Assembly: GCA_038231435.1 (NCBI GenBank)
Contig: JBBRLJ010000001.1
Location: 64,001 to 128,000 of the forward strand
Source: Planctomycetota bacterium
Lineage (GTDB): Bacteria; Planctomycetota; UBA11346
Length of the DNA stretch: 64,000 bases
Reading direction: 5' to 3'
The notes under the pieces were generated by a model. The model was not told the origin of the DNA. It saw only the letters and a list, made by a program, of their open reading frames with translations, and made no database searches. Each line of letters opens with the position of its first letter. The first letter of the stretch is position 1. Below are positions 6,872 through 40,636 of this stretch, piece after piece. The position numbers were made by a program, and so were the translations under genes.

Positions 6872-7726
6872 TCAGCCCCGCTCCATCCGCCGTTCCTTGC
6901 TCCACCGTGTCGGACTGCGGCCGAACTTCTCGCGGAATCGACGAGTGAAGTACTCCGCGCTGTCGTAGTGGCAGCGCGCGGCGACCTCCTTAACGGTGAG
7001 CGTGCTGCTCGCCAGCAGTTGGCAGGCGCGCTCGAAGCGCACCTGCTCGACGTAATCCTTGGGCGACATCGCGTAGCGTTCGACGAACAGGCGGAAGAGC
7101 GTCGATCGGTTGACCCCGAAGCGCTCAGCCAATGCCGCAATGCGGATCGGGCCCAGGTGGTGGCGGATATAGTCGCGGCAGGCACCGGCGACGCCCACGG
7201 CCTTGCCGGACTCGGCCTCGAAGCCGAGATGCTCGGCTGTCCTCCAGATCAGTTGCCAGGCGGCGGCGGCGGGAAAGATGGGATTGAACCCGCCGTGCTT
7301 GAAACGCGCGAAGACCTCGATTGCGGCGGGCACGACGTCGTTACCCTCGCGCAGCCGATAGGACCGAGTCCCGGGTGGGAATCCCGCGCTCTGGATGACC
7401 CAGGCGACATCGCGGCCGACCAGTGATATCCACACGAAGCGCCAGGGCGATCCGGGGACGTCTGAGAGATCGACGACGTCGCCCGGCCAGTAGAGGAAGA
7501 CGTCATCGCGCGCGAGACGGATCTCGCGGCCGTCGCACAGCGCCGCTCCATCGCCGCCGATCATGAAGCGCATGAAGAAAGTCGGCGCATGCAGCCGGTA
7601 GCGGAAATAGCCACGGCTGGTGCAGTTGCCGATGACGTTTATCGCGACGTCCGGGACTTCGTCGAGCCTCGCCAGGTCGGCGTAGCACATGTCATTGATC
7701 GTCTCGCGGTCGTTCAGCGTCGGCAT
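6872..7726 (-). CDS. AraC family transcriptional regulator
   Basis: Cupin-type N-domain plus C-terminal double HTH (RFERACQLLASSTLTVKEVAARCHYDSAEYFTRRFREKFGRSPTRW). Confidence 0.9.
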   Translation of the reverse strand: MPTLNDRETINDMCYADLARLDEVPDVAINVIGNCTSRGYFRYRLHAPTFFMRFMIGGDGAALCDGREIRLARDDVFLYWPGDVVDLSDVPGSPWRFVWISLVGRDVAWVIQSAGFPPGTRSYRLREGNDVVPAAIEVFARFKHGGFNPIFPAAAAWQLIWRTAEHLGFEAESGKAVGVAGACRDYIRHHLGPIRIAALAERFGVNRSTLFRLFVERYAMSPKDYVEQVRFERACQLLASSTLTVKEVAARCHYDSAEYFTRRFREKFGRSPTRWSKERRMERG

Positions 7727-7942
7727 GGACGGGCCTCGCACGGCGACTCTACCCGCATCGAGGAGGGACTCGGGCCAAGGGCGCTAAATAGGCATCACGT
7801 CATCATCACACACAGCTCGCGATGCGGTCACCCGACCACGGCCTCCTCACCTCTGTGCCGCGAATCCGATTATGCGGGTCGGGTGCAGCATTCTCGCCGT
7901 TGGCGCGAAGACGATCAATGAACCATCCCTACTTTCCATTTT

Positions 7943-8179
7943 TCACCTACCCGACGTCCTCCCCCACCGCCCCCACGCCACCGCTCCCGCCATCACTCCC
8001 ATCGCCACTGCCCAGTCCATTGGATTCTCGACGCTCAGCTTCAGCGAGTAACTCGCATACAGGGCCCCGAGCGCGAAGATCTCGATCGTCAGCACGGTTG
8101 CGGCCCACGGTGTCAGCACCGACATCCGCCTCGTCGCCATAGCCATGGTGAGCAAGACCGCGCCCATCTTCTCGAGCAC
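7943..8179 (-). CDS. Small putative membrane protein
   Basis: GGAGG RBS just upstream of GTG 8179; 78 aa with two hydrophobic segments; no recognised family. Confidence 0.4.
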   Translation of the reverse strand: MLEKMGAVLLTMAMATRRMSVLTPWAATVLTIEIFALGALYASYSLKLSVENPMDWAVAMGVMAGAVAWGRWGRTSGR

Positions 8180-8271
8180 CCTGATCCTCCCCCGATACTG
8201 CGTACACCATGTTGCGAAGTAAGCCTCGGGGTAACATCGTCCTTGGGCCGCTCCCCTCTTTCGATGGTCTC

Positions 8272-9771
8272 CTACTCCTTCGCCGCTAATTCCGGCAGCA
8301 AGTGTTGCAGCTCTGCGAGCGTCGTCCGCCCTTCAGCCGCCTTGCGCACGCCATCGGCGGCCATGGTCACGAAGCCCTGGCCGATGGCGATTGAGCGCAG
8401 CTCGGCATCGGTCGCGTTGCGGCGCAGGGCGAAGCGGAGCTCACGCGTCACCTCGAGCGCCTCGCTGACCATCATTCGCCCGCTGTATCCGGTGTCGTGG
8501 CAAGCGGGGCACCCGGCGGCGCGCTTCCATGCAGGCTTAACCGTGCTCCAGGCGACACCGCCCGACCCGGCTACGAGTTCAGCGTGGCGGGCGCTCGCCG
8601 CCGCGGGAGCGCCCGCCACGGCGCACTTCGCGCACAACCTGCGCACCAGGCGCTGCGCCATTACCAGCGCAACCTCCTCGAGGCCGGCCTCGTGGTCGCT
8701 CGAGAGGTCGGCGATGCGGCGCAACGCGGCGATCGCGTCGGGGGCATGCAGGCAGGCGAGCACGAGATGTCCGGTGATAGCGCATTCGGCGGCGGCCTCC
8801 ATGGTCTCCCGATCGCGCAGGTTCTCGAGCACGACGATGTCGGGATCGACTCGCAGCACTGCGCGCAGCGCCGCGGGATAGTCCATCCCCTGCTCGACGT
8901 CGACGCGCACGCGCACGGCCTGTGGCAGGCTGTAGGGCATGTGCTCCTCGATCGTGACCAGCCGTGCTTCGGTGGTGGCAGTGAGCTGGGCGCAGCCGTA
9001 CATGGCGGTCGATTTGCCGCTGCCGGTCGGACCGGCGAAGATCACCAGGCCATTCGGCGCCTTGAGCGCGCGCTCGAGCGCAGCGCGTTCACGCGGCGCG
9101 AAGCTCATCGCCTCGAGCGTCGGCAGGCTCAACGACAGGTCGTGGAAGCGTGCGACCACGCATTCACCGTGCACCGCCGGCAGGGTGGTCGCACGGATGT
9201 CGATGCGCTGGCCATCGCTCTCGATGGTCATCAGGCCGTCCTGGGCACGGCTGGAGAGGGCGAGGTTCATTCCGGTCATGCGCTTGAGCTGCTCAACCAT
9301 GAGCGGCTGCAGGCGCACGTCGAAGCGCGCGATTTCGACCAGGGCGCCATCGATGCGCAACTGGATCGCGCCCGCGCTCGGAAAGGCGAGCAGGTGCAGG
9401 TCACTCGCCTTCATGCGCATTGCAACGCGGATTGAGAGCTGCATGGCTACCTGGACCAGGTCGCCCGTCGGCTCGGCAGCGCGCTCGCCAAGGCGCTCGC
9501 GCAGGCCGTGGATCAGCGGCTTGATGTCCGTCGGCAGGTCGACGCGAGGACCCTCGCCCTTGAGGAAGCGCTCGATGTCGTCGCGGCGGAAACGCCACTG
9601 GCGCCCGATCTTCACCCCCTTCACGGTCCCGGCGCGCAGCCAGCGATAGAAAGTCGGCCGCGTGGTGGTCAGCGCGGTGATCGCCTGATCCATGTCGAGC
9701 AGGTCGGATGCCGCCGGCGCCGCCAGTGAGGGAGCGGCGGAACGGCTGCGGGGCTTGGCGGTACGGGGCAT
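8272..9771 (-). CDS. Excisionase-like HTH (HTH_17) fused to a GspE/PilB-family secretion ATPase domain
   Basis: N-term LLDMDQAITALTTTRPTFYRWLRAGTVKGVKIGRQWRFRRDDIERFL; ASDLHL, RIDG, Walker A GPTGSGKS, LRVDPDIVV, TGHLV, AQRLVRRLC, CxxC...CxxC zinc motif, TGYSGR. Confidence 0.9.
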   Translation of the reverse strand: MPRTAKPRSRSAAPSLAAPAASDLLDMDQAITALTTTRPTFYRWLRAGTVKGVKIGRQWRFRRDDIERFLKGEGPRVDLPTDIKPLIHGLRERLGERAAEPTGDLVQVAMQLSIRVAMRMKASDLHLLAFPSAGAIQLRIDGALVEIARFDVRLQPLMVEQLKRMTGMNLALSSRAQDGLMTIESDGQRIDIRATTLPAVHGECVVARFHDLSLSLPTLEAMSFAPRERAALERALKAPNGLVIFAGPTGSGKSTAMYGCAQLTATTEARLVTIEEHMPYSLPQAVRVRVDVEQGMDYPAALRAVLRVDPDIVVLENLRDRETMEAAAECAITGHLVLACLHAPDAIAALRRIADLSSDHEAGLEEVALVMAQRLVRRLCAKCAVAGAPAAASARHAELVAGSGGVAWSTVKPAWKRAAGCPACHDTGYSGRMMVSEALEVTRELRFALRRNATDAELRSIAIGQGFVTMAADGVRKAAEGRTTLAELQHLLPELAAKE

Positions 9772-14144: not shown

Positions 14145-14210
14145 GATAAGTCCACTCCAATGACAGCTTGACCAGCGGCGGACTGGGCGCCACTGGCGAT
14201 GCTGCCGGCC

Positions 14211-26662: not shown

Positions 26663-28351
26663 CTATAGCAACGACAGCTGCTTCGCTCCGTGCGTCGTGC
26701 CCAACACCCGGTCGACGAGATCACGAGCCTCGGACAGGTACCAGCCACGATCGATGACCGCGAGGTCCACCCGCGCGGGGTCCCACACCGGGATCGCTTG
26801 GGTGGCGACGGTAGAGGTCTCGCGATGTCCGGTCGATTGGACGATCGGCTCGCCGCCGCGTCCGACCACCCATCTGACCACGCGCTCGTCGACTGCGCGA
26901 CCGCCCCAGCTCAGATCCCGCGCCCGGCGCCACATGGCGAAATCGGTCACCACCGTGGATCCGGCGATCACGTCCTCCATGCGGCGCTGGTGGACGAGGT
27001 GTTCGACGGCCGCCCGCGCGACCACTGGAGCCGCCGAGCGCCGTGACGCCTCGGCCGCGTCGTCGTCCCCACCCGCGAACCTGCCCTTGGCCTTCACCAC
27101 CTCGCCATCCGGCCCCTGGGCCACGTAGTCATTCACGCTGGTGCGCCAGATCCGCCGGTAGGCGGTGCGCTCGAGCGTCAGGCCGGTCAGCGTCTCCCAC
27201 GCCGATGCACCAGCCTCGGCGTCGCCACGCACCACCACACCATCGGTGTTGGCCGAAATCAGCTCGCAACCGCTGGCCACGAGCCCATCGATCAGCTGCA
27301 GGAGCCTGAGTTGGCCGGTGAGCACCACGCGTAGCGCGTCCGGTGGCGAGAACAGTCCGCTGCGCGAATTCCCGAGCTGCCCGTACAAGCTGTTGATGAC
27401 GTATTTCAGCGCCTGGCTCGCGGTGTGGTCGCGCGCGCGTTTGGCTTCGAGGCGACGCGCCATCAGCAGCCCGACGCGGCGCGAGAAATCCGGCAGCTGC
27501 GGCGGCGAGATGGCGTCGGCCGCAATGATGGATGGATAGTACGAGGCGACGTCCAGATCGACGAGCGGCCCGTCGATCGCTCCCGCCGGATCGCACGAAT
27601 GCAGGCCGCCGACGCCGAGCGCGAGTTCGGCGGAACCAACAGTGAAGGTGCCTCCGGCGGCGGGCGCGAGCGACAGCCGGCCGCGATCGTCCCAGCGCAC
27701 CGAGCCATCGAGGATCGAGCGCATCGCCGCGCGCGCGTCGTCTCCTGTGGCCTGGAAACGCTCCGGCCGGCTCAGCAGTTCGCTCACCGGAACCTCGCCG
27801 GGCACCACCGCGCGCTGCACCTGATCGCGGCGCAAGCCCTCGAGCACCACCGTCTCGGCCAGCTGGCCGGTCGCCGACAGCCACGCGGCATCGCCGATCC
27901 ACGGATGATAATCGAGCAGGCGCTGGCGCACCGCCACCTGGCCGGCGTACCGCTCCATGAGTCGCGCGATGGTCTCGGCCGCCACCAGCGCGTCGCCCAT
28001 CGGCAGCGCCAGGCCGGCCCTGCAACACGCCCCGTCCAGATCGCCGACGATGATGCTGGCGTCGATGGTACGGGCCCATCGGCGCGGGTACCGGCGCAGC
28101 GCGCGGACCAGGTGGCGGTCTGCAGGCGCGCCACCGGCGAAGACCGAGGGCGCCCCCTCGTCACCGGCGGCGATCGCGCACAGCAATCGCTCGCCATCCC
28201 ACGGCGACAACTCGCCCTGGGACTCCGTAACGATGGTGAGGCCAGGGTCGTCGAGCAGCTGCCGGGCCACGTCCCAAGGCAGGATCCGGCTCCTGCCAGC
28301 GGCATGCACGGCGAGACCCGCGCCAGTAGGCAGGACGGCTGCGGTGGGCAC
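26663..28351 (-). CDS. Family B DNA polymerase (phage-like 'NTDG' type) with a degenerate N-terminal exonuclease region
   Basis: LGVGGLHS; motif A VDLDVASYYPSII; motif B RRLEAK..QALKYVINSLYGQLG; VVLTGQLRLLQL; motif C ISANTDGVVV; SVNDYVA; KAKGRF. Start uncertain (GTG 28351 avoids overlapping the kinase gene). Confidence 0.85.
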   Translation of the reverse strand: MPTAAVLPTGAGLAVHAAGRSRILPWDVARQLLDDPGLTIVTESQGELSPWDGERLLCAIAAGDEGAPSVFAGGAPADRHLVRALRRYPRRWARTIDASIIVGDLDGACCRAGLALPMGDALVAAETIARLMERYAGQVAVRQRLLDYHPWIGDAAWLSATGQLAETVVLEGLRRDQVQRAVVPGEVPVSELLSRPERFQATGDDARAAMRSILDGSVRWDDRGRLSLAPAAGGTFTVGSAELALGVGGLHSCDPAGAIDGPLVDLDVASYYPSIIAADAISPPQLPDFSRRVGLLMARRLEAKRARDHTASQALKYVINSLYGQLGNSRSGLFSPPDALRVVLTGQLRLLQLIDGLVASGCELISANTDGVVVRGDAEAGASAWETLTGLTLERTAYRRIWRTSVNDYVAQGPDGEVVKAKGRFAGGDDDAAEASRRSAAPVVARAAVEHLVHQRRMEDVIAGSTVVTDFAMWRRARDLSWGGRAVDERVVRWVVGRGGEPIVQSTGHRETSTVATQAIPVWDPARVDLAVIDRGWYLSEARDLVDRVLGTTHGAKQLSLL

Positions 28352-28433
28352 GTGGAAAGCGTCGACGAGCGGAGGATGAAGGAACCGAATTGTCGCCGCC
28401 CATCGGCCCTGGCGACCGATCCATGACGCCCGA

Positions 28434-31337
<2,904 letters not shown>

Positions 31338-31440
31338 GTCATCACGAGTATAACCCACGAAGCTTCCCCCGTCCATGCGATGCGGCCGATTCCCCAGGCG
31401 CGGATTCCGGGCCGCGCTAGCGTGGCCCATCACGACGAGC

Positions 31441-32436
31441 ATGCGCAAGCGCCCAACACCCACACCGCATCCGCGTCGCACGCGACCCCGCGGCGGACCG
31501 CCGTCATCCACCCATGCCCAAGGTGGGGCCGCCACCGCGGGTGCGGAGCGCTACGACCTCGCGCGACTCGCCAAGGCCCATCCTCCCTTGCAGCGCTGGC
31601 TGCGCCGCTCCCCCTCGGGCGATGACACCATCGACTTCTCCGACGCGCGCGCGGTGCGCGATCTCAACCATGCGATCGTCGCCGACGCCTACGGGATCAC
31701 GGCGTGGGACGCGCCCGCGGACACGCTCTGTCCTGGAGTTCCCGGACGTCGCGACTACGTGCGCGGGATCGCCGGACTGCTCGCCGGCGATCGCGGCGGG
31801 GTGATCCCGCGCGGGCTGGACGTGCGTGTGTTCGACGTGGGCGTGGGAGCCGCCTGCATCTATCCGATCATCGGGCGAGGCGAATACGGCTGGCGGTTCA
31901 TCGGTTCGGACGTTGACGCCGTCGCCATCGCGAGCGCCAAGCGCATCGCGCAGGCGAACCTGCTCCTGCGCGACGCCGTCGAGATCCGCATCCAGTCCAC
32001 CGCCGACCAGGTGCTGCTCGGGGTGCTTGGGCCCCGCGAGCGCGTCGACGCGGTGATGTGCAATCCCCCCTTCCACGCCTCCCGCGAGGAGGCGCGCGCC
32101 GGCACGCGCCGCAAGTGGACGAACCTCGGGCGCGACGCGCTCGCGCGCAAGCCGAACCCGACCACCAATTTCGGCGGCCGCGACGCCGAGCTGTGGTGCC
32201 CGGGCGGCGAGGTCGGCTTCATCGGCAGGATGATCGCCGAGAGCGCCCAGGTGCCGTTGGCGAGCGGCTGGTTCACCGCCCTGCTGTCGCGAGCATCGCA
32301 TGTGCCCGCGATCACGCGCGCCTGGGCGCGGGTGAATCCGGCCGAGACCCACGTGCTGCCGATCAGTCGCGGTCAGAAGCAGAGTCGCATCGTCGCCTGG
32401 ACCTTCCTCGCGGCAGCGGCGCGCGCCGCACGCTGA
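31441..32436 (+). CDS. rlmF: 23S rRNA (adenine1618-N6)-methyltransferase
   Basis: TIDFSD..AVRDLN, LCPGVPGRRDY, DVGVGAACIYPIIG..EYGWRFIGSD, MCNPPFH, NFGG..ELWCPGGE, GQKQSRIVAWTF. Confidence 0.92.
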   Translation: MRKRPTPTPHPRRTRPRGGPPSSTHAQGGAATAGAERYDLARLAKAHPPLQRWLRRSPSGDDTIDFSDARAVRDLNHAIVADAYGITAWDAPADTLCPGVPGRRDYVRGIAGLLAGDRGGVIPRGLDVRVFDVGVGAACIYPIIGRGEYGWRFIGSDVDAVAIASAKRIAQANLLLRDAVEIRIQSTADQVLLGVLGPRERVDAVMCNPPFHASREEARAGTRRKWTNLGRDALARKPNPTTNFGGRDAELWCPGGEVGFIGRMIAESAQVPLASGWFTALLSRASHVPAITRAWARVNPAETHVLPISRGQKQSRIVAWTFLAAAARAAR

Positions 32437-33829: not shown

Positions 33830-34015
33830 AGGCTCGCATGATCCCGACGGTGTCGCCCGGCCTAGCGAATTGCCCGTGCACCATCTCCGGCGCGCGCGAA
33901 TGCCACTGACCGTTTCATTCGTCCCATGGACCATCGCACGGACCCGGTCGGGCACGCCAGCAGCCACGCTGTGAACTTCGCCACGCGGCATGCGTTCTCC
34001 TGGAGGGGCGAGAGC

Positions 34016-37000
34016 ATGGGACGCCGCACTGGGATCATCGCGACGGTCGCCGTCTGCATCGCCATGCTGGCGATCGCCGTGGCGCGTTTCCACACCACGC
34101 GTCCGGACGCTGACGGAGCGAGCGCGACGGGCGCGGGCTGGCGAGCGGAACCGACCGAGCTGGTGGCGCGCATCGAGCATCTCGCGGACGCTGGAGAAGC
34201 CGACGCGGCAGCGAGCGTGCTCGCGCAGCTGCTCAAGCGTGACGGCATCGCCGCAACCGGGCTCGACGATCGCGCGCGCATGGCGGCAGCGCGCGGCTAC
34301 CTGAAGGCGAAGCGCACCGATGAGGCCCTCGCGCAGGTCGCGGCCATCCCCTGGGCGGACAAGAGCCGGGCGGTCGCGGCGCAGATCCTCGGCCTCGAAT
34401 TGGCGATACGTTGGCAAGGTCTGTTCGATCGCGATGGCCACCTGGCCCCGGCGGCGCTCGGCCCGCGTTTGTCCCCCGAGGCTCCGCAAGGCCTGCCCAA
34501 GGGCGCGTGGCTGCAGCGCTGGGAGCACTACCGCGCGCTCGCCGAACTCATCGATCGCGGCGCACACATGGTTTCTTCCGAAGGTGGCGCGGTCGCGATG
34601 CCGGCGTCGGCCGCGATGATGCAACTCGCCCGCCACGATCACGGGGATCTCAGCGAATCGGATTTCGCTGCGGCGATGGGCCCTACGCGCGACTGGCAGC
34701 CCGAGCTGGCCCTGGCGATGTGCCGGCTGCGCCTGCAGGAGTACGCCATCCCCGAGGCGATCGCGGCGGCCGAGGCGCTGTGGTCGGGGCATCCCGCCAG
34801 TGGCGAGGCTGCCGAGGCGTACCATCTGCTGCGTGTTTGGCAGCTCGAGCGCGGCCTGGCCTCGGGACACCTGCCGTTGTGGCGGTATCCCGAGGTGGAC
34901 GCTCGGCTCGACGCCCTGGCGACCATCTATAAAGACGCGGCCAGAAGCGCGGATATCGCGGTGGCGAGGATCCAGGAGCTCAACCAATGGGGCATGGCGA
35001 GCGCTATTGCTGCGCAGGCCGCGAAGGCCGCGAAGCCATTGCTGGATGCGGTCGAGACCGCGATCCCAACGGCCGAGATCGCGAGGAACGAGGATGCGAT
35101 CGACGACCGGCCCGAGCGGCGGGTCTTCGCCCTGGCGCTGGCATGGAACGGGCTGGAGTTGGCCAGCGAACGGCGCGAGGTGCCGCTCGGCGAACCCGCC
35201 ACGCTGACCATCACCTCAGTGCATCGCGGCCCGCACACCGTGCGCATCCATCGCCTCCCCAACCGCAAGACCTGGGATGTGATGTGCACCAAACCATCCA
35301 ACGCGTTGCTGCCAGCGGAAGCGGTCCACACCAGGGAACTGCAGGGTGGAGACTGGTCATCCCTCGGCGAGCCCTGCGCGATGCCCTTCAACGTGGATGG
35401 CCTGGGCGAGGGCTTCTATGTCGCCACCGTGGCCGTGCGCGGATGTCCGACCACGGTGCTCACGGGCTTCGTGGTCGTGGACCCGGACCTGTACGTGATC
35501 GCTGGACGCGACGAGGTGGTCACCTGGGTGGTCAGCCGCGCCAGCGGCAAACAGAAGTCCGGCGAACCCCTGCGCGCGACGATGAGCCTGGTGCGCGACC
35601 CAGCGCAAGCGGCTGGATCGGCATGGGACGGCGCAGACCCGGTGTGGCGTGCGGGCTTCACCGAGGCCTTCACCGATGAGCCGTCCGCCGCATTCGTGAC
35701 CGACGCGCTACGACCGGTGTTCGCAGCTGGGCGCACGGCCGGCCTCGCGGCCTCGGCCACTGATCCCCCCTTCTCCGCCGAGCTGGATGCGGTGAGTGGC
35801 GAGGATGGCATCGGCCGCGTGGCGCTGCCCGTGAGACTGCGCGACCGTTCCTACACAGTGGCCGTCTCGATCTCGCGCCCCGATGTGATGGTCAGGCGCG
35901 AGGCCCGCGTAGGACCGGCGGCAGATTGGACCGCGAAGGCCGTGGCGTGGGCGGACCGGCCCCTGGTGCGTCCGGGAGAGACCGTGCATTGGAAGATGCT
36001 GATGCGCGATCTCGATGGCTACAGCTACCGGCTGCCGGTGGGCGAGATCGAGCTGACTCTGCGCCTCGACGACCAGGTGCTGTGGAGTGGAACCCAGGCG
36101 ATCACGGATGCCGGCACGGTGGGCGGAGAGCTCGCCATCCCGCCGGGAGCCGCCGAGGGCCGGCTCACCGTATCAGCGGGAACGTCCGGGCCGCGCCACG
36201 CGCTCGCCGGCATCGAACGGGCGGCGTTGCCGAGCGTGCGCTATGACGTGATCGAGGACGAGACGTCGCGCTTGCGCGCCGGGGAATCCATCCGCACCGG
36301 CATCGGCATCCATGACGCCGCCGGTGAGCCCATCGCCGGCGTCGAAGTCACGTGCTCGGTCACCGCGTACCTCGACGGCGTGGCCACGCCGTGCCCGCAG
36401 CCTGGCATAACCACCAGCGACGTCGCGGGTATTGCCCATGTGGTGATCGCCACCATCCCCGATGCCCAGGCGCTGTACCGCGCATATTTCTCGTTCACCG
36501 TCGATCACCATCGCTACCGCATCGAGCGCTCATGGCAGGCGAGCACCTTTCCCTTCCCCCTCGAGGCGGTGGTGCGCAACCGCCAGCTCTCGGCCGTGGA
36601 TTCGGTGCGCGTCGAGCTGCGCTTCCCGGCCGAGGCGCAGGTGACGGTGCGCCTGGTGCGTGGCGAGCAGGCACTAGGCGAGGATCAGCATCCGCGCGGC
36701 GCCTGGCCGCTGTGGTGCGAAGCGCACGTGCCGCTGGATCGTTCGACGCAGAACGCCGACGCGGTCGAGGTATCTACCGCGGTCGCGGGAGGCGGCAGGG
36801 CGCGCCTGCGCATCCCGATCACCATTGCGCCGCCACCGATATCCGCCGGTGCGCCCGAGGTGCAGCTCTCGCCGGACCGGCTGCGCGTCGAACCGGAGCA
36901 GACGCTGGGACTGACTCTCGGCGTGAATGTTCCGGGACGCGATGTGCTGCTCGTCGGCGGCTCGCGCTCGGTGCAGTTGCTCCGCACCACCCGCCTGGAC

Positions 37001-40000
37001 ACGCCGGCGCACCGAGTGGAGGTGGCGATCGCCAGCGACTGGGCGCCCAACATCTCGCTGCAGGCGGTCGCCTACCTTCCCATCCGCGGATTCACGGCGA
37101 CATCGCGCCAGGACATCGAAGTCAGCCCGGTCGACCGCCTGCTGCGCGTGGTGGTCACTCCCGAGCGCGAGGACTACCATCCTGGTGACGACGTCGCGGC
37201 GAGCGTGCTGATCAGCGATTGGAAGGGCAGGCCCGCGGGCGGGGTATCAGTCAGCATCGGCGTGGTCAATGAGCTCATCTACCAGCTCGCCGATGACGCC
37301 ACGCCCGACCTGTGGACCTATTTCTATGGTTACCGGCGCGCGTACGGCTTGGTCGAGGGCACGGCCACCGCACTGCCCTTTCCGTCTGCGTCGTTGTGGC
37401 ACGGCGTCGCGTGGCGCTGGCAGTCGCCCGAGGGCTTCGCCTGCATCGGCTCGGAGATGGCGCTCTCAGCGATGAACGGCGCGCGCTACGGCGGCGGTCG
37501 CGCGCGGTCGATCTCGAGGGGCGGCGGTGCGTCGGCGAGCGAAGCGGCCATGCTCGCTTTGGAATCGGGCGTCGCCATCGCCTGGGTCGGCGACCTGCGC
37601 ACCGACGCGGATGGGCGGGCGACGATACGCTTCACCATGCCGGCGAACACCGGCCGTTTCCGCTGCACCGCCCGCGCCAGCTCCACCGACGCGCAGCTGA
37701 TGGTCGGCGAGGTGCGCATGGGCATCACCAGCCGTCAACCCTTCGGCTGCGCGCTACGCCTGCCCGAGACCGCGCGCGAGGGAGACGTGGTGCAGGCCGA
37801 ACTGGCGCTCGCCAGCTACGACGACGCGCCGCTGGCGCTGGCGCTGGAATTGCCGGACGGCTCGCGGCGCGAACTCACGTTGCCGGGGCGCGCCCGGCGC
37901 GCGCTCGCAGTGCCGGTGCGCATCGCCGCAGGAGACGGCGAGATACGCGTCGCTGGCGGACAGGTCGGCCGCGTCGTCACCCTGCGCGCATCCGCGGTGG
38001 CGGTGGCTGGCGCAGCCAAGCTCGAGACCCGCATCGTGGCGGCAGCGCACTGCCTGGTGATCGCCGCCGGCATACCACGCACCTGGTCGGGATTGGTCAG
38101 CGCGGGCGCGGATGGCTCCATCAGCCTACCGTGGCCGGTGCCCGAGGGCGCGGCGCTACGCGTGCGCTGTCGCGCTTGGCCAGATGCCTCGGCGCGACGC
38201 GACGCGCTCGCCGCCAGCGCGCGCGCGGGCGTACCCGCGGGAGCGGTCGCCGCCTTGGCATGGCTCGAAGCGCCCGCCGGCGAACGGCGCGCACGAGCCC
38301 TGGCGACGTGCTGGTCCACGCTCGACAAGTACATCCCTTCGGCGCTCGCGCGCCAAGCCGCCGCTCGCCGTGGCGAGGCCTTCGGATCCCTGGGCGCCGT
38401 ACCCGACGGCGTCGACGGCGATTGGCTGCTCGCGCGCGGTCGCTTCGATGGCCTGCTGCTCGGTGCGCCGCGCGAACGCGGCCATGTCGCCAGCGCGGGC
38501 AGTGATCGGATCGCGGCGGTGGCCATAGCGCTCGCCGAGAGTTGGCCCGAGGGCCATGCCTGGTGGCCTGGCATCCTCCAGGAGCTGGACCGCGCCAGCG
38601 ATGGCCAGGGCACAGATCCAACGCTGTTCAGTCTCGCGCTCGGCATCGACGCGGCGCGCATGGCGGGCGATGAGTCCGCCCGTACCCGCTTGGCGGCCCG
38701 GCTCGGGCGCCTGCCGTGGACCTGCGAGTTCGATCAAGCCCTGGCCCTGGTATCCATCCCGTCGGGACCGGGATCGATCGGCGGCGCGGTCCTCGTCCAG
38801 GATCGCGCGGGAGTCGGTGCAGCCGCCGCGACCGACATCGCCACCCTCGCCACCATCGCCACCCTCGACGCAGGCGCCGCGAGCGAGTGGCTCGGCGTCG
38901 CCGGTCCGTCGTTCACGTTGTCATCGACGCCAGGCGCGCTCGCGGATCTGGAAGTGCTGATGCAGACACCGGCACCGCTGCAAGCGAAGTCCGTCCAGCT
39001 CAGCGCCACCTTCTACGAGCGCTGCGAGGACGGCGGCTACACCGCCGTCCCCGCCGGTCGAGCGCTCTGGCCCGGACGTCCGCTGGCGATGGCGATCGCA
39101 TCGCCACAGATGGCCGAGGTGGTGCTGCGCCTGCCGAGCCTGCTGCGCATCGCCCCCGAGGGCGGCGAGTTCCTCATCGTCGATGCCGAGCGGTCGTCGA
39201 TCAGGATCGACGGAGACATCCGCCTGGCCGCGAGCCTGCTCGAGGGTGGCGATCGTGATGGCGCCCTCGCCAGTTTCTTCTCCATGTGCCAGCGCAATCC
39301 GGTGCTGCGGACAGGCGTGGGCCAACGCCTGCCGGTGCATGGAGCGGATTCCAAAGCCTTGATCTCCGCGGATGGAACCCTGTCGTTAAGCGTCTGGCCC
39401 GGACAGCCCACGTTCATCGCGCTCGCGACCTCCAGCGAGGGAACGGCGGCCTGGCCGCCGCTCGCCATCACTGGCACCATGCCAGGCGCTCAAGAACGCC
39501 AGCAGGAGCTTCCCAGCATCGTGGTGGGTGTCGGCGACATCGCGCCCCTAGCAGCACCGGAGATCGGCCTACCTGCGCGCGCACTCGCACGTCTGCGCCA
39601 CCTGGCCGCCGATGCGTCCACCGAGGACCTGAGCGCGCTGCTGCTCCAGATGCAGGACCTCGATGTCGACGACGATCCCCGCATCGCGCTGCTCGACCGG
39701 CACGCGGCGCACGATCCAGCGGCGCTGCTGGCGCATCCCCTCTCTGGGGTCCCGGGACACTGGTCGACGGCCGCGCTGCGCGCCTGGAGCGACGGCGACT
39801 TGATGCTGGCGGTGGACACTCCTACTTTGAAGCGCTGGTTGAGCCTCATGGATGGGGGCAGGAACCGCGCGACCGGGCTACAAGATGTTCCGGATGCCGG
39901 AGCGGAACTGGTCGCGGGGGTGGATTGGACCGCCGAGCTCGCACACCCCACCATGCGCACGTTGATCCTGCTCGCCGAGGCCGATGCCGCGCTGCGCAGG

Positions 40001-40636
40001 GAGATCGAGGTGCGCCTGCCGACCTCGATGGCGACGGCGCCGCGCGTAGTCTCGACCGCCAGGGACTGGTTCAGGCGTCTTGGCGCGCTCGGTCTCGCCC
40101 CGGCGCGGGACTACGACACCTGGGTCTGGGAGCAGGAGCTCGATGCGGATCTGCAGTCGACACTGGGATATCCAAGCGGGGTCGACGGCTGGGTCGCCTT
40201 CCTGCGCACACGCTGCGGGCTCGAGGTGCGCATCGGCACGGGGGTACCTGTCGAGATCCCCGGCATCGACCAGGTCTCGGGCCCGCGGCTGGGCGCATCC
40301 TTGCTCACGACGTGCGGATATGCCCTGCAACGTGTGGGCCCCGCGCTCGAGATTCGTCCGGCGCGGGGATTCATCCTCCAGGAACACCTCCTGACCATCA
40401 GCATCGATGTCACCGACGAACGCCTCGATACGGTTGTCGCCGACCTCGATACGCTGCTCGCCAATCGCGGCCTGCCGCCGCTGGAGGTGGACCCCGCATT
40501 CCATGGCGGCGATACGCGAGTCACGTTCGCCTGCAAGGAAGCGGACTGGCGGAACGCGGTGACATCGTTGGCGAGCGTGATCGGCGCGACGGTTGCATTC
40601 GACGGGAATCATGCGGCCCTGCGCCACGCGCATTGA
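34016..40636 (+). CDS. Giant alpha-2-macroglobulin (MG2/A2M) family protein, thioester motif absent
   Basis: N-terminal TM/signal and TPR-like region; ADRPLVRPGETVHWK (MG2), WAPNISL, REDYHPGD, VSIGVVNE, LRTDADGRATIRFTMPANTGRFR (A2M), LRLPETAREGD; no CxEQ. Confidence 0.85.
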   Translation: MGRRTGIIATVAVCIAMLAIAVARFHTTRPDADGASATGAGWRAEPTELVARIEHLADAGEADAAASVLAQLLKRDGIAATGLDDRARMAAARGYLKAKRTDEALAQVAAIPWADKSRAVAAQILGLELAIRWQGLFDRDGHLAPAALGPRLSPEAPQGLPKGAWLQRWEHYRALAELIDRGAHMVSSEGGAVAMPASAAMMQLARHDHGDLSESDFAAAMGPTRDWQPELALAMCRLRLQEYAIPEAIAAAEALWSGHPASGEAAEAYHLLRVWQLERGLASGHLPLWRYPEVDARLDALATIYKDAARSADIAVARIQELNQWGMASAIAAQAAKAAKPLLDAVETAIPTAEIARNEDAIDDRPERRVFALALAWNGLELASERREVPLGEPATLTITSVHRGPHTVRIHRLPNRKTWDVMCTKPSNALLPAEAVHTRELQGGDWSSLGEPCAMPFNVDGLGEGFYVATVAVRGCPTTVLTGFVVVDPDLYVIAGRDEVVTWVVSRASGKQKSGEPLRATMSLVRDPAQAAGSAWDGADPVWRAGFTEAFTDEPSAAFVTDALRPVFAAGRTAGLAASATDPPFSAELDAVSGEDGIGRVALPVRLRDRSYTVAVSISRPDVMVRREARVGPAADWTAKAVAWADRPLVRPGETVHWKMLMRDLDGYSYRLPVGEIELTLRLDDQVLWSGTQAITDAGTVGGELAIPPGAAEGRLTVSAGTSGPRHALAGIERAALPSVRYDVIEDETSRLRAGESIRTGIGIHDAAGEPIAGVEVTCSVTAYLDGVATPCPQPGITTSDVAGIAHVVIATIPDAQALYRAYFSFTVDHHRYRIERSWQASTFPFPLEAVVRNRQLSAVDSVRVELRFPAEAQVTVRLVRGEQALGEDQHPRGAWPLWCEAHVPLDRSTQNADAVEVSTAVAGGGRARLRIPITIAPPPISAGAPEVQLSPDRLRVEPEQTLGLTLGVNVPGRDVLLVGGSRSVQLLRTTRLDTPAHRVEVAIASDWAPNISLQAVAYLPIRGFTATSRQDIEVSPVDRLLRVVVTPEREDYHPGDDVAASVLISDWKGRPAGGVSVSIGVVNELIYQLADDATPDLWTYFYGYRRAYGLVEGTATALPFPSASLWHGVAWRWQSPEGFACIGSEMALSAMNGARYGGGRARSISRGGGASASEAAMLALESGVAIAWVGDLRTDADGRATIRFTMPANTGRFRCTARASSTDAQLMVGEVRMGITSRQPFGCALRLPETAREGDVVQAELALASYDDAPLALALELPDGSRRELTLPGRARRALAVPVRIAAGDGEIRVAGGQVGRVVTLRASAVAVAGAAKLETRIVAAAHCLVIAAGIPRTWSGLVSAGADGSISLPWPVPEGAALRVRCRAWPDASARRDALAASARAGVPAGAVAALAWLEAPAGERRARALATCWSTLDKYIPSALARQAAARRGEAFGSLGAVPDGVDGDWLLARGRFDGLLLGAPRERGHVASAGSDRIAAVAIALAESWPEGHAWWPGILQELDRASDGQGTDPTLFSLALGIDAARMAGDESARTRLAARLGRLPWTCEFDQALALVSIPSGPGSIGGAVLVQDRAGVGAAAATDIATLATIATLDAGAASEWLGVAGPSFTLSSTPGALADLEVLMQTPAPLQAKSVQLSATFYERCEDGGYTAVPAGRALWPGRPLAMAIASPQMAEVVLRLPSLLRIAPEGGEFLIVDAERSSIRIDGDIRLAASLLEGGDRDGALASFFSMCQRNPVLRTGVGQRLPVHGADSKALISADGTLSLSVWPGQPTFIALATSSEGTAAWPPLAITGTMPGAQERQQELPSIVVGVGDIAPLAAPEIGLPARALARLRHLAADASTEDLSALLLQMQDLDVDDDPRIALLDRHAAHDPAALLAHPLSGVPGHWSTAALRAWSDGDLMLAVDTPTLKRWLSLMDGGRNRATGLQDVPDAGAELVAGVDWTAELAHPTMRTLILLAEADAALRREIEVRLPTSMATAPRVVSTARDWFRRLGALGLAPARDYDTWVWEQELDADLQSTLGYPSGVDGWVAFLRTRCGLEVRIGTGVPVEIPGIDQVSGPRLGASLLTTCGYALQRVGPALEIRPARGFILQEHLLTISIDVTDERLDTVVADLDTLLANRGLPPLEVDPAFHGGDTRVTFACKEADWRNAVTSLASVIGATVAFDGNHAALRHAH

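Follow-up and report, generated by a model that had tools for sequence, protein, structure and literature searches.

We analysed a family B DNA polymerase (PolB) gene at positions 26663..28351 on the minus strand of a 64,000-nucleotide (nt) stretch of a Planctomycetota bacterium genome (GCA_038231435.1, contig JBBRLJ010000001.1). This whole stretch is called the window, and its numbering is used for all window features. The gene product is a compact polymerase with an intact catalytic site, an N-terminal domain that appears to keep an exonuclease fold without its proofreading motifs, and a C-terminal peptide that is a candidate binder of the bacterial sliding clamp. At a probability of roughly 0.55, we read this protein and its close relatives, referred to here as the clade, as a host-adapted, clamp-tethered accessory polymerase that lacks proofreading and is probably error-prone, acting in gap filling or in lesion bypass and extension.

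Sequence comparison and models indicate that the proofreading site was lost once, in one lineage whose members now reside in the chromosomes of a single Planctomycetota family. The exonuclease fold was kept as a conserved structural or interaction module, with the polymerase active site staying intact, and the C-terminus carries a candidate beta-clamp-binding pentapeptide. In the mode of action that we propose, the host sliding clamp would recruit the polymerase to primer ends on cellular DNA, which it would extend without proofreading, either as a gap-filling enzyme or as an extender in lesion bypass. Such a role would be analogous to that of the exonuclease-dead PolB2 or Pol zeta, and to that of the clamp-tethered Pol II. 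The gene itself moves horizontally between related genomes as a single-gene unit of ~1.8 kb.

Gene structure and polymerase domain

An earlier sequence-only reading of the window had placed a gene of about 560 amino acids (aa) at this position, and re-translation of the coordinates agreed with it, giving 562 aa from a GTG start codon at 28351 to a TAG/TGA-type stop codon at 26663-26665. The full open frame is longer (26663..28570, minus strand), and its 5'-most 137 nt lie inside an upstream kinase open reading frame (ORF; 28434..31535); because of this overlap, GTG 28351 is the plausible start. The start position is the same in orthologues. The third-position GC content (GC3) of the gene is 0.842, inside the range of 0.82-0.87 for neighbouring genes with family matches, in agreement with the host-like composition reported earlier.

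The polymerase domain, comprising palm, fingers and thumb, spans residues 236-552 (26696..27646, minus strand). It was delimited by Foldseek and VIA matches to solved PolBs and by a match to the phrog_1252 profile, annotated as DNA polymerase (E 3.5e-64), in which residues 235-554 align with profile positions 319-656 of 663. A profile built from 66 members of the family matched solved Pol II, Pol alpha and RB69 polymerases over motifs A-C, with a best E of 9.6e-10 and a weakest of ~1e-5. The Pfam model DNA_pol_B (PF00136) gave 19.2 bits, under its gathering cut-off of 23; the shortfall is a limit of the model, which does not reach so divergent a family, rather than a biological trait by which membership is defined. 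Scores of the NCBIfam Pol II models did not exceed 34.2 bits against cut-offs of 570-1435.

An AlphaFold2 model based on the family alignment reached a mean predicted local distance difference test (pLDDT) value of 94.0 and a predicted template modelling score (pTM) of 0.90. Solved PolBs matched it over model residues 1..556 with VIA Z values from 18.0 to 15: KOD polymerase gave Z 18.0 with a root-mean-square deviation (rmsd) of 5.3 over 440 aligned residues (chain residues 135..754), E. coli Pol II gave Z 16.2 (rmsd 5.6, 425 residues, alignment from chain residue 150) and RB69 polymerase gave Z 15.8 (rmsd 5.6, 439 residues, alignment from chain residue 108). Foldseek matched the model to archaeal PolB, Pol alpha and Pol II with E ~1e-12. 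Residue 1 of the model corresponds to the start of the canonical exonuclease domain, and therefore the canonical PolB N-terminal domain is missing. Among predicted viral structures, the best match was a 665-aa polymerase of an uncultured tailed phage (query-normalised TM score 0.78, E 1.2e-28), and crAss-like phage polymerases were also among the fold matches of the model.

All polymerase motifs listed in the sequence-only reading were found, namely GVGGLH at residue 246, DLDVASYYPS at 265, NSLYG at 320, SANTDG at 366 and VNDY at 406. Motif A (DLDVASYYPS, with D265, D267, Y271 and Y272) lies at 27530..27559, motif B (KYVINSLYG, with K316, N320, Y323 and G324) at 27380..27406 and motif C (SANTDG) at 27239..27256, all on the minus strand; in motif C, N368 stands in place of the first Asp and D370 is the metal ligand. 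A KAKG sequence (K420 to G423; 27083..27094, minus strand) is the counterpart in this lineage of the KxY primer-terminus motif. Conservation was scored in alignment A2, which holds 66 rows (40 from the clade and 26 from exonuclease-intact relatives): D267, Y271, Y272, K316, N320, G324, N368, D370 and K420 are identical in all 66, and G423 is invariant as well.

The window protein has motif A with its catalytic Asp and steric-gate Tyr, motif B, the second Asp of motif C and the PolB fold; it is a compact family B polymerase that lacks the canonical N-terminal domain. A primer-independent PolB (piPolB) that likewise has only the second Asp of motif C, with Thr at the first position, is described as an active polymerase (PMC5695915).

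N-terminal domain and phylogenetic origin

Residues 1-235 (27647..28351, minus strand) form a region that the structural model describes as a DnaQ/DEDD-type exonuclease fold, with a core at residues 1-160 and a linker subdomain, from which the catalytic motifs have been lost. The absence of ExoI, ExoII and ExoIII motifs claimed in the sequence-only reading holds across the clade, represented by the 40 rows of alignment A3: neither N-x(2,3)-[FY]-D nor Y-x3-D occurs in any row (0/40 each), and none of them carries Asp or Glu in the first beta strand (alignment columns of residues 4-10). Judged by these motif counts, a complete set of exonuclease carboxylates appears to be absent. Relatives of ~590 aa with 24-43% identity carry ExoI (D-x-E), ExoII (FN-x3-[YF]D) and ExoIII (YC-x-ND), and in the 26 exonuclease-intact rows of A2 the six motif residues are all conserved in every ungapped row.

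The extent of the phrog_1252 match separates the two groups in the same way. It spanned positions 2-656 in 7/7 exonuclease-intact relatives (three metagenomic, two Planctomycetota and two phage proteins), as compared to only 318-656 in 3/3 clade members tested (the window protein and two others). When 38 clade N-termini were compared with 71 intact ones by hhalign, only one weak alignment was obtained (residues 125-228, probability 4%, E 0.0097). A profile of seven N-termini searched against 1.84 billion representative sequences recovered five proteins: one full clade member, three short partial ones of 73-110 aa and one repeat protein. At the level of sequence, the N-terminal 235 residues are without resemblance outside the clade.

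Structure comparison nevertheless points to a retained exonuclease fold. The modelled N-terminal domain shows a beta-beta-beta-alpha-beta-alpha core, and when folded alone it reached a pLDDT of 78 and a pTM of 0.71. In a comparison of this lone domain with ~48,000 solved chains, DEDD-type 3'-5' exonucleases and the exonuclease domains of polymerases dominated the matches, with Z values of 8.5-6.1: E. coli exonuclease I (Z 8.5), DNA polymerase 9qpc (Z 8.5) and phi29 polymerase residues 6-196 (Z 8.1), followed by Pol epsilon, RNase D, the Pol III epsilon subunit and Klenow. Individually, the scores are moderate, and the argument for the fold call lies in the consistency of the match list.

Conservation and selection also speak for a maintained domain. 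Residues D35, L85, W92, G103, C110, G113, L116 and P117 of the N-terminal region are invariant in the clade. Five of them belong to a clade-specific motif, GDLxAACCRAGLxLP, which in the window protein reads GDLDGACCRAGLALPMGD (residues 103-120; 27992..28045, minus strand) and contains two adjacent cysteines; G103, C110, G113, L116 and P117 are invariant in the 40 rows, and D104, C109, R111 and D120 are conserved in at least 90%. The ratio of nonsynonymous to synonymous substitution rates (dN/dS, Nei-Gojobori method, NG86) between the clade members of genomes G022 and G030, the sole unsaturated pair, was 0.138 at a dS of 0.31, with 0.167 for the N-terminal and 0.105 for the C-terminal part. The pair G031-G036 gave 0.135 at a dS of about 1, and the other, saturated pairs gave 0.22-0.36. 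A ratio near 1 would mark a decaying remnant, and the observed value is ~0.14. The description of this domain as eroded does not stand, since the exonuclease fold is kept, conserved in the clade and under purifying selection. The N-terminal part is also larger than the ~170 aa first assigned to it, with ~235 non-polymerase residues and the exonuclease-fold core at 1-160.

The proposal that the NTDG form of motif C comes from a phage lineage was supported. Asn stands at the first position in 26/26 exonuclease-intact relatives and in 40/40 clade rows, so that its substitution for the first Asp characterises the lineage as a whole, including its phage representatives. A tblastn search matched 951 phage records, all with less than 40% identity and over the polymerase half only.

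To place the clade, a quick maximum-likelihood tree of the polymerase half was built from 63 rows: the window protein, six genome-derived clade members, 14 of 43 other clade proteins, three Planctomycetota exonuclease-intact proteins, two phage proteins and every second of 75 distant proteins, minus one without the anchor motif. The clade formed one branch with an SH-like approximate likelihood ratio test (SH-aLRT) support of 100 and a stem of 1.58 changes per site, and therefore a single loss of proofreading explains the data. Its sister group consists of the Planctomycetota exonuclease-intact lineage and one metagenomic protein (SH-aLRT 99), a pairing that could be favoured by the deviant amino-acid composition of many high-GC rows. 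As reconstructed in this tree, the clade descends from exonuclease-intact polymerases of the phrog_1252 kind, and its nearest relatives are such enzymes in phages and in the second, exonuclease-intact Planctomycetota lineage.

Candidate clamp-binding tail, distribution and mobility

The protein ends in QLSLL (residues 558-562; 26666..26680, minus strand), a candidate beta-clamp-binding motif according to the tail pattern of the clade and a complex model. The bacterial clamp-binding consensus is described as QL[S/D]LF or QxxLF (PMC12309361). The pattern Q[LMTE][ST]x[LF] follows the thumb in 38/40 clade rows, at the C-terminus or within ~25 residues of it; of the remaining two tails, one reads QLRFL and one is unrelated. 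Among exonuclease-intact relatives (n = 75), the strict tail pattern occurred in 1/75 and a loose form in 8/75, and the Planctomycetota exonuclease-intact lineage is without a clamp-type tail.

The complex was modelled from two copies of the genome's own DnaN (L062:739-1884, aligned with 26 relatives) and polymerase residues 520-562. The model scored 0.63, as compared to 0.00 for the best of three controls; a score of 0.63 was reached by 116/157 solved complexes and by 2/215 mismatched pairs. The runs agreed in at least 52% of contacts, and the pLDDT of the partner was at least 48. In the modelled interface, polymerase residues 553-562 contact DnaN residues 184-189, 261-266 and 373-380. If the predicted contact is real, the tail points to synthesis on clamp-loaded DNA rather than to synthesis of a free nucleotide product.

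The distribution of the clade is narrow and patchy. A large protein collection contained 44 other clade members with 53-69% identity, full or near-full in length and free of frame breaks, and the next match had 36% identity. When the genomes of 60 relatives were searched, 9 of the 36 genomes from the same family gave matches, corresponding to eight clade members (56-64% identity) and a fragment in G004 (39%). The latter is a 111-residue match with 39% identity to residues 450-560, located in a 169-aa frame (G004:C104:15344-15676, L010), and could represent either a remnant of the polymerase or a fragment that has diverged. No clade match was found in either of two congeners (61% and 79% completeness). 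In an even sample of 400 phylum genomes, clade-level matches were confined to the family of the window; the 377 sampled genomes outside it gave none, and two of them gave matches of 30-32%. Nine clade loci were present in a species-representative collection, all in metagenome-assembled genomes (MAGs), seven titled Planctomycetota bacterium and two Candidatus Kuenenia. The two Kuenenia-titled loci, L035 and L041, correspond by genome search to G022 and G030, which belong to the same family as the window.

Genomic context gave no sign of a prophage. As claimed before, no integrase, primase, helicase or capsid gene was found among the ORFs scanned, here between window positions 14199 and 41999. 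Annotated flanks of clade loci were free of phage genes, and no close relative of the polymerase was found in viral contigs; by both measures, the homologues do not lie in prophages. A plasmid search gave 15 matches, all distant and partial. The flanks of other annotated clade loci hold genes for topoisomerase I, NADH dehydrogenase subunits, Pol I, transporters and regulators. None of the window proteins between 14 and 42 kb had a relative in the flanks of eight other loci, and apart from the polymerase and scattered paralogues, no gene is common to those flanks.

Pairwise identities of PolB and DnaN from eight genomes were uncorrelated (Spearman 0.016; 28 pairs, not independent): G031 and G036 share 81.6% in PolB and 53.6% in DnaN, and the congeners G008 and G031 share 63.1% and 77.9%, respectively. 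PolB identities thus do not track those of DnaN, indicating horizontal exchange within the family as a single-gene unit. Between the congeners G022 and G030, 90% DNA identity is confined to the coding region, up to its stop codon, and ~110 bp ahead of it. No mobility gene flanks the gene, and no convincing direct or inverted repeats were found around the window gene or at the G022/G030 homology boundaries.

One copy is disrupted. The G030 copy is interrupted after "...ARAALEH" by what is probably an insertion sequence (IS) element, whose 10-bp inverted ends are perfect and which is accompanied by a 9-bp target-site duplication. The contig ends concerned are L023 10549-10692 (G030:C91) and, in reverse complement, L015 1-150 (G030:C110), and both contigs end inside the insertion. 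Because its presence is patchy and one copy is IS-split, the gene is regarded as dispensable. Domestication in the sense of stable inheritance was not supported either: the gene is patchy and horizontally exchanged within the family, and one genome has it interrupted by an IS. What survives of the original proposal of a domesticated, proofreading-deficient polymerase is its core, an intact catalytic site, lost exonuclease motifs and a non-prophage location. The three findings that the sequence-only reading had named as refuting it (complete exonuclease carboxylates, homologues only in prophages, dN/dS near 1) were all decided in its favour.

Interpretation and related polymerases

Several observations weigh against the accessory polymerase that we favour. 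The genome already holds three Y-family polymerase homologues, and the patchy presence, horizontal exchange and IS disruption also fit a selfish or defence-linked cargo gene. Of the 38 tails with the motif, 24 have Leu and 14 have Phe at the fifth position, which is described as important for clamp binding in E. coli (PMC12309361). The modelled interface is of a textbook type, and the pass of the complex model may reflect likeness to solved clamp-peptide complexes. Clamp binding is in any case no proof of a host function, as IS transposases are also reported to bind the clamp, nor is clamp use confined to host proteins: Pseudomonas phage Iggy has a beta clamp gene of its own, annotated as DNA polymerase III beta subunit, which precedes the PolB gene by two genes and adjoins DpdA (L101 655-1638 and 2218-4398). 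Given this proximity, clamp use may be old in the polymerase lineage. Finally, the loss of the exonuclease site was read from motif patterns and alignment columns, and MAFFT puts the N-terminal motifs at different places in alignments A1 and A2.

The main rival explanation is that the gene is flexible-genome cargo with a role in conflict, as an anti-phage or anti-plasmid polymerase or as a selfish clamp-using gene, and not a repair enzyme. We consider it unlikely, though well ahead of the others. It draws on the phage ancestry, on the patchy presence (8/36 family genomes, 0/2 congeners), on the uncorrelated PolB and DnaN identities and the G022/G030 similarity confined to the gene and ~110 bp upstream, and on defence-type genes in some flanks, namely PIN_3 and HTH_17 (L038), PIN (L018), an N6_N4 DNA methylase (L017) and Schlafen AlbA_2/HATPase_c_4 (L023). 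The kinase upstream of the window gene also matches the defence models PD-T4-6 and mad6. However, these matches arise through the generic kinase domain, and the kinase adjoins the polymerase in no other genome examined. The polymerase itself has no PADLOC match, its flanking genes are mostly housekeeping, and no integrase, transposase or terminal repeats flank it. To our knowledge, no mechanism is known for cell defence by an exonuclease-dead PolB acting on its own. A bolder view would treat the clade as an unlisted PolB group, horizontally mobile as a single gene and beta-clamp-tethered, whose proofreading domain was remade as a new module around GDLxAACCRAGLxLP, and which serves as a transferable mutator or diversifier or, in view of its piPolB-like SxNTDG and KxKG motifs, as a primer-independent restart or defence polymerase; taken as a whole, this appears improbable.

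Less credible still is a piPolB-like enzyme capable of primer-independent starts and lesion bypass, as hinted at by SxNTDG and by K[AT]KG in place of KxY. In piPolBs, SxTTDG and KTRG are described as defining motifs, and de novo priming and bypass of non-bulky lesions have been shown (PMC5695915). The equivalent motifs of the present polymerase lineage are SANTDG and KAKG or KTKG, in which K420 and G423 are invariant, and the likeness of KAKG to KTRG serves as a lead only. The motifs are nevertheless similar in form and not identical, and both are common to all exonuclease-intact relatives, including ordinary phage replicases encoded beside helicases. The sequence lacks the KH found upstream in the extended piPolB motif, and the closest solved folds are RNA/DNA-primed PolBs. 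With regard to the TPR1 and TPR2 subdomains of piPolBs, the observation is a polymerase part of only ~320 aa with those same fold matches. The flanks examined hold no pipolin context (integrase, att sites), and the exonuclease site, conserved in piPolBs, is lost in the clade. A non-catalytic scaffold or regulator, which would occupy the clamp or recruit partners via the remodelled N-terminal domain, is very improbable. Dead PolB paralogues are known elsewhere, the remodelled domain has acquired a strongly conserved surface motif that includes two cysteines, and the clade sits on a long stem (1.58 changes per site); yet all polymerase catalytic and dNTP-binding residues examined are invariant in 40/40 clade members, which is not expected of a scaffold. 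The idea of a functionless, decaying remnant of a prophage or other element, to which the IS-split copy, the short fragments in G004 and G030:C44 and the patchy distribution might be attributed, has been largely refuted by the low dN/dS in both gene parts, the 44 other clade proteins without frame breaks, the invariant catalytic residues, the host-like composition and the lack of phage genes nearby, and it is the least probable of all.

An accessory polymerase without proofreading can be set beside several known groups. The phrog_1252 phage polymerases (Achromobacter phage phiAxp-2, Pseudomonas phage Iggy and the ~590-aa metagenomic relatives) likewise have an exonuclease fold directly followed by palm, fingers and thumb, and they share DxDVASYYPS, KxxxN(G/S)xYG, SxNTDG and KxKG with the clade, at 25-43% identity in the polymerase half. 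These relatives keep ExoI-III, match the profile end to end and sit among phage replication and packaging genes, whereas clade members have lost the three Exo motifs, match over the polymerase half only, stand alone in chromosomes and nearly always carry the clamp motif. The window protein accordingly shows neither the end-to-end match nor the DEDDy motifs nor the phage genome with adjacent replication genes of a phrog_1252 polymerase, and neither the N-terminal domain nor the NCBIfam score of a Pol II (G1).

A second PolB lineage occurs in the same Planctomycetota family, also as a lone gene among non-phage genes, and G031 has both. It differs from the clade in its intact ExoI-III motifs, an N-terminal extension of ~90 aa and the lack of a Q-x-x-L-[LF] tail. 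These proteins of ~630-680 aa are encoded at L045 (= L022) 7035-9038, L043 3970-6015 and L046 881-2884; in L045 and L046, genes for a SET-domain protein and a GSDH/ricin-lectin protein come after the polymerase gene.

Among cellular enzymes, E. coli Pol II (G1) is described as a non-essential accessory bacterial PolB with a clamp-binding motif (PMC12926913). The clade resembles it in these respects, as candidate accessory polymerase and motif bearer, and in its matching fold, but is without the N-terminal domain, the active DEDDy proofreader and the YGDTDS motif of Pol II. PolB2 (G2) is described as taking part in lesion bypass, where it is an error-prone extender, and two proteins are its predicted partners (PMC12926913). 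PolB2, Pol zeta and Pol alpha have likewise kept an exonuclease fold without catalytic residues next to an active polymerase site; the principle is shared, not the membership, since these enzymes have the canonical three-part architecture with an N-terminal domain. The clade lacks that domain, and in contrast to PolB2 no flanking gene is common to the window and the eight other loci, a comparison of flanks and not a genome-wide search for partners. On sequence grounds, the exonuclease inactivation of the clade arose independently of that in PolB2, Pol zeta and Pol alpha, inside a phage-type lineage.

A 2026 survey distinguishes eight bacterial PolB groups: G1 (Pol II), G2 (PolB2), G3, piPolB, crAss-like_1, crAss-like_2, PolB_CDTDS and PolB_SITDG (PMC12926913). 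The minor groups (crAss-like_1/2, PolB_SITDG, PolB_CDTDS and piPolB) are described there as lacking the N-terminal domain and having a mostly intact proofreader, and only PolB2 is described there with a dead one (PMC12926913). In some minor groups, the first position of motif C is occupied by a residue other than Asp (PMC7544198, PMC5695915). Complete genomes were the basis of the survey (PMC12926913); the clade members found come from MAGs throughout. In titles and abstract openings of the literature on Planctomycetes family B polymerases and on phage-derived exonuclease-deficient PolBs, we found no description of the clade. An exonuclease-dead PolB is of a known kind; the clamp tail, the single-family range and the lone-gene horizontal exchange are new here.

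Family B polymerases are rare in bacteria. If the favoured reading is correct, the clade would represent a second, independent route to a proofreading-less bacterial PolB beside PolB2 (PMC12926913), leading from a phage replicase through loss of the exonuclease site, with the fold under selection, to a candidate host clamp-docking peptide. It would offer a natural case for studying the conversion of a viral replicase into a cellular accessory polymerase, and the purpose of a retained dead exonuclease domain. The single-gene mobility raises the possibility that mutagenic capacity is passed on horizontally, and a 562-aa enzyme, if active and naturally exonuclease-free, could interest polymerase engineers.

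Minor features of the loci are as follows. No sigma-70-like promoter was detected for the polymerase gene, and one weak terminator-like hairpin at the stop codon is no commoner than expected by chance. A comparison by eye of eight upstream regions, made without a formal motif search, revealed no common regulatory motif. The congeners G001 and G002 were too fragmented and diverged for an empty-site comparison, with the neighbouring genes on different contigs. A conserved partner gene was considered and rejected: a cupin/AraC_binding gene precedes the polymerase only in genus g5 (G022, G030), and an AraC regulator precedes the G031 copy, neither being clade-wide. In g5, the cupin/AraC_binding ORF of 105 aa lies directly upstream of the polymerase (L018 8453-8770; L031 1503-1817; L032 1532-1895). 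G030 has a separate full copy of this ORF and a third site, where two short remnants of the 5' end of the polymerase gene come after a partial copy. In the window, the kinase ORF 82 nt upstream of the polymerase gene (28434-31535, minus strand) encodes a 1033-aa Ser/Thr kinase with leucine-rich repeats on the same strand, and an ORF at 33926-40636 (plus strand) encodes a 2236-aa alpha-2-macroglobulin-like protein with MG2, A2M_BRD and A2M domains.

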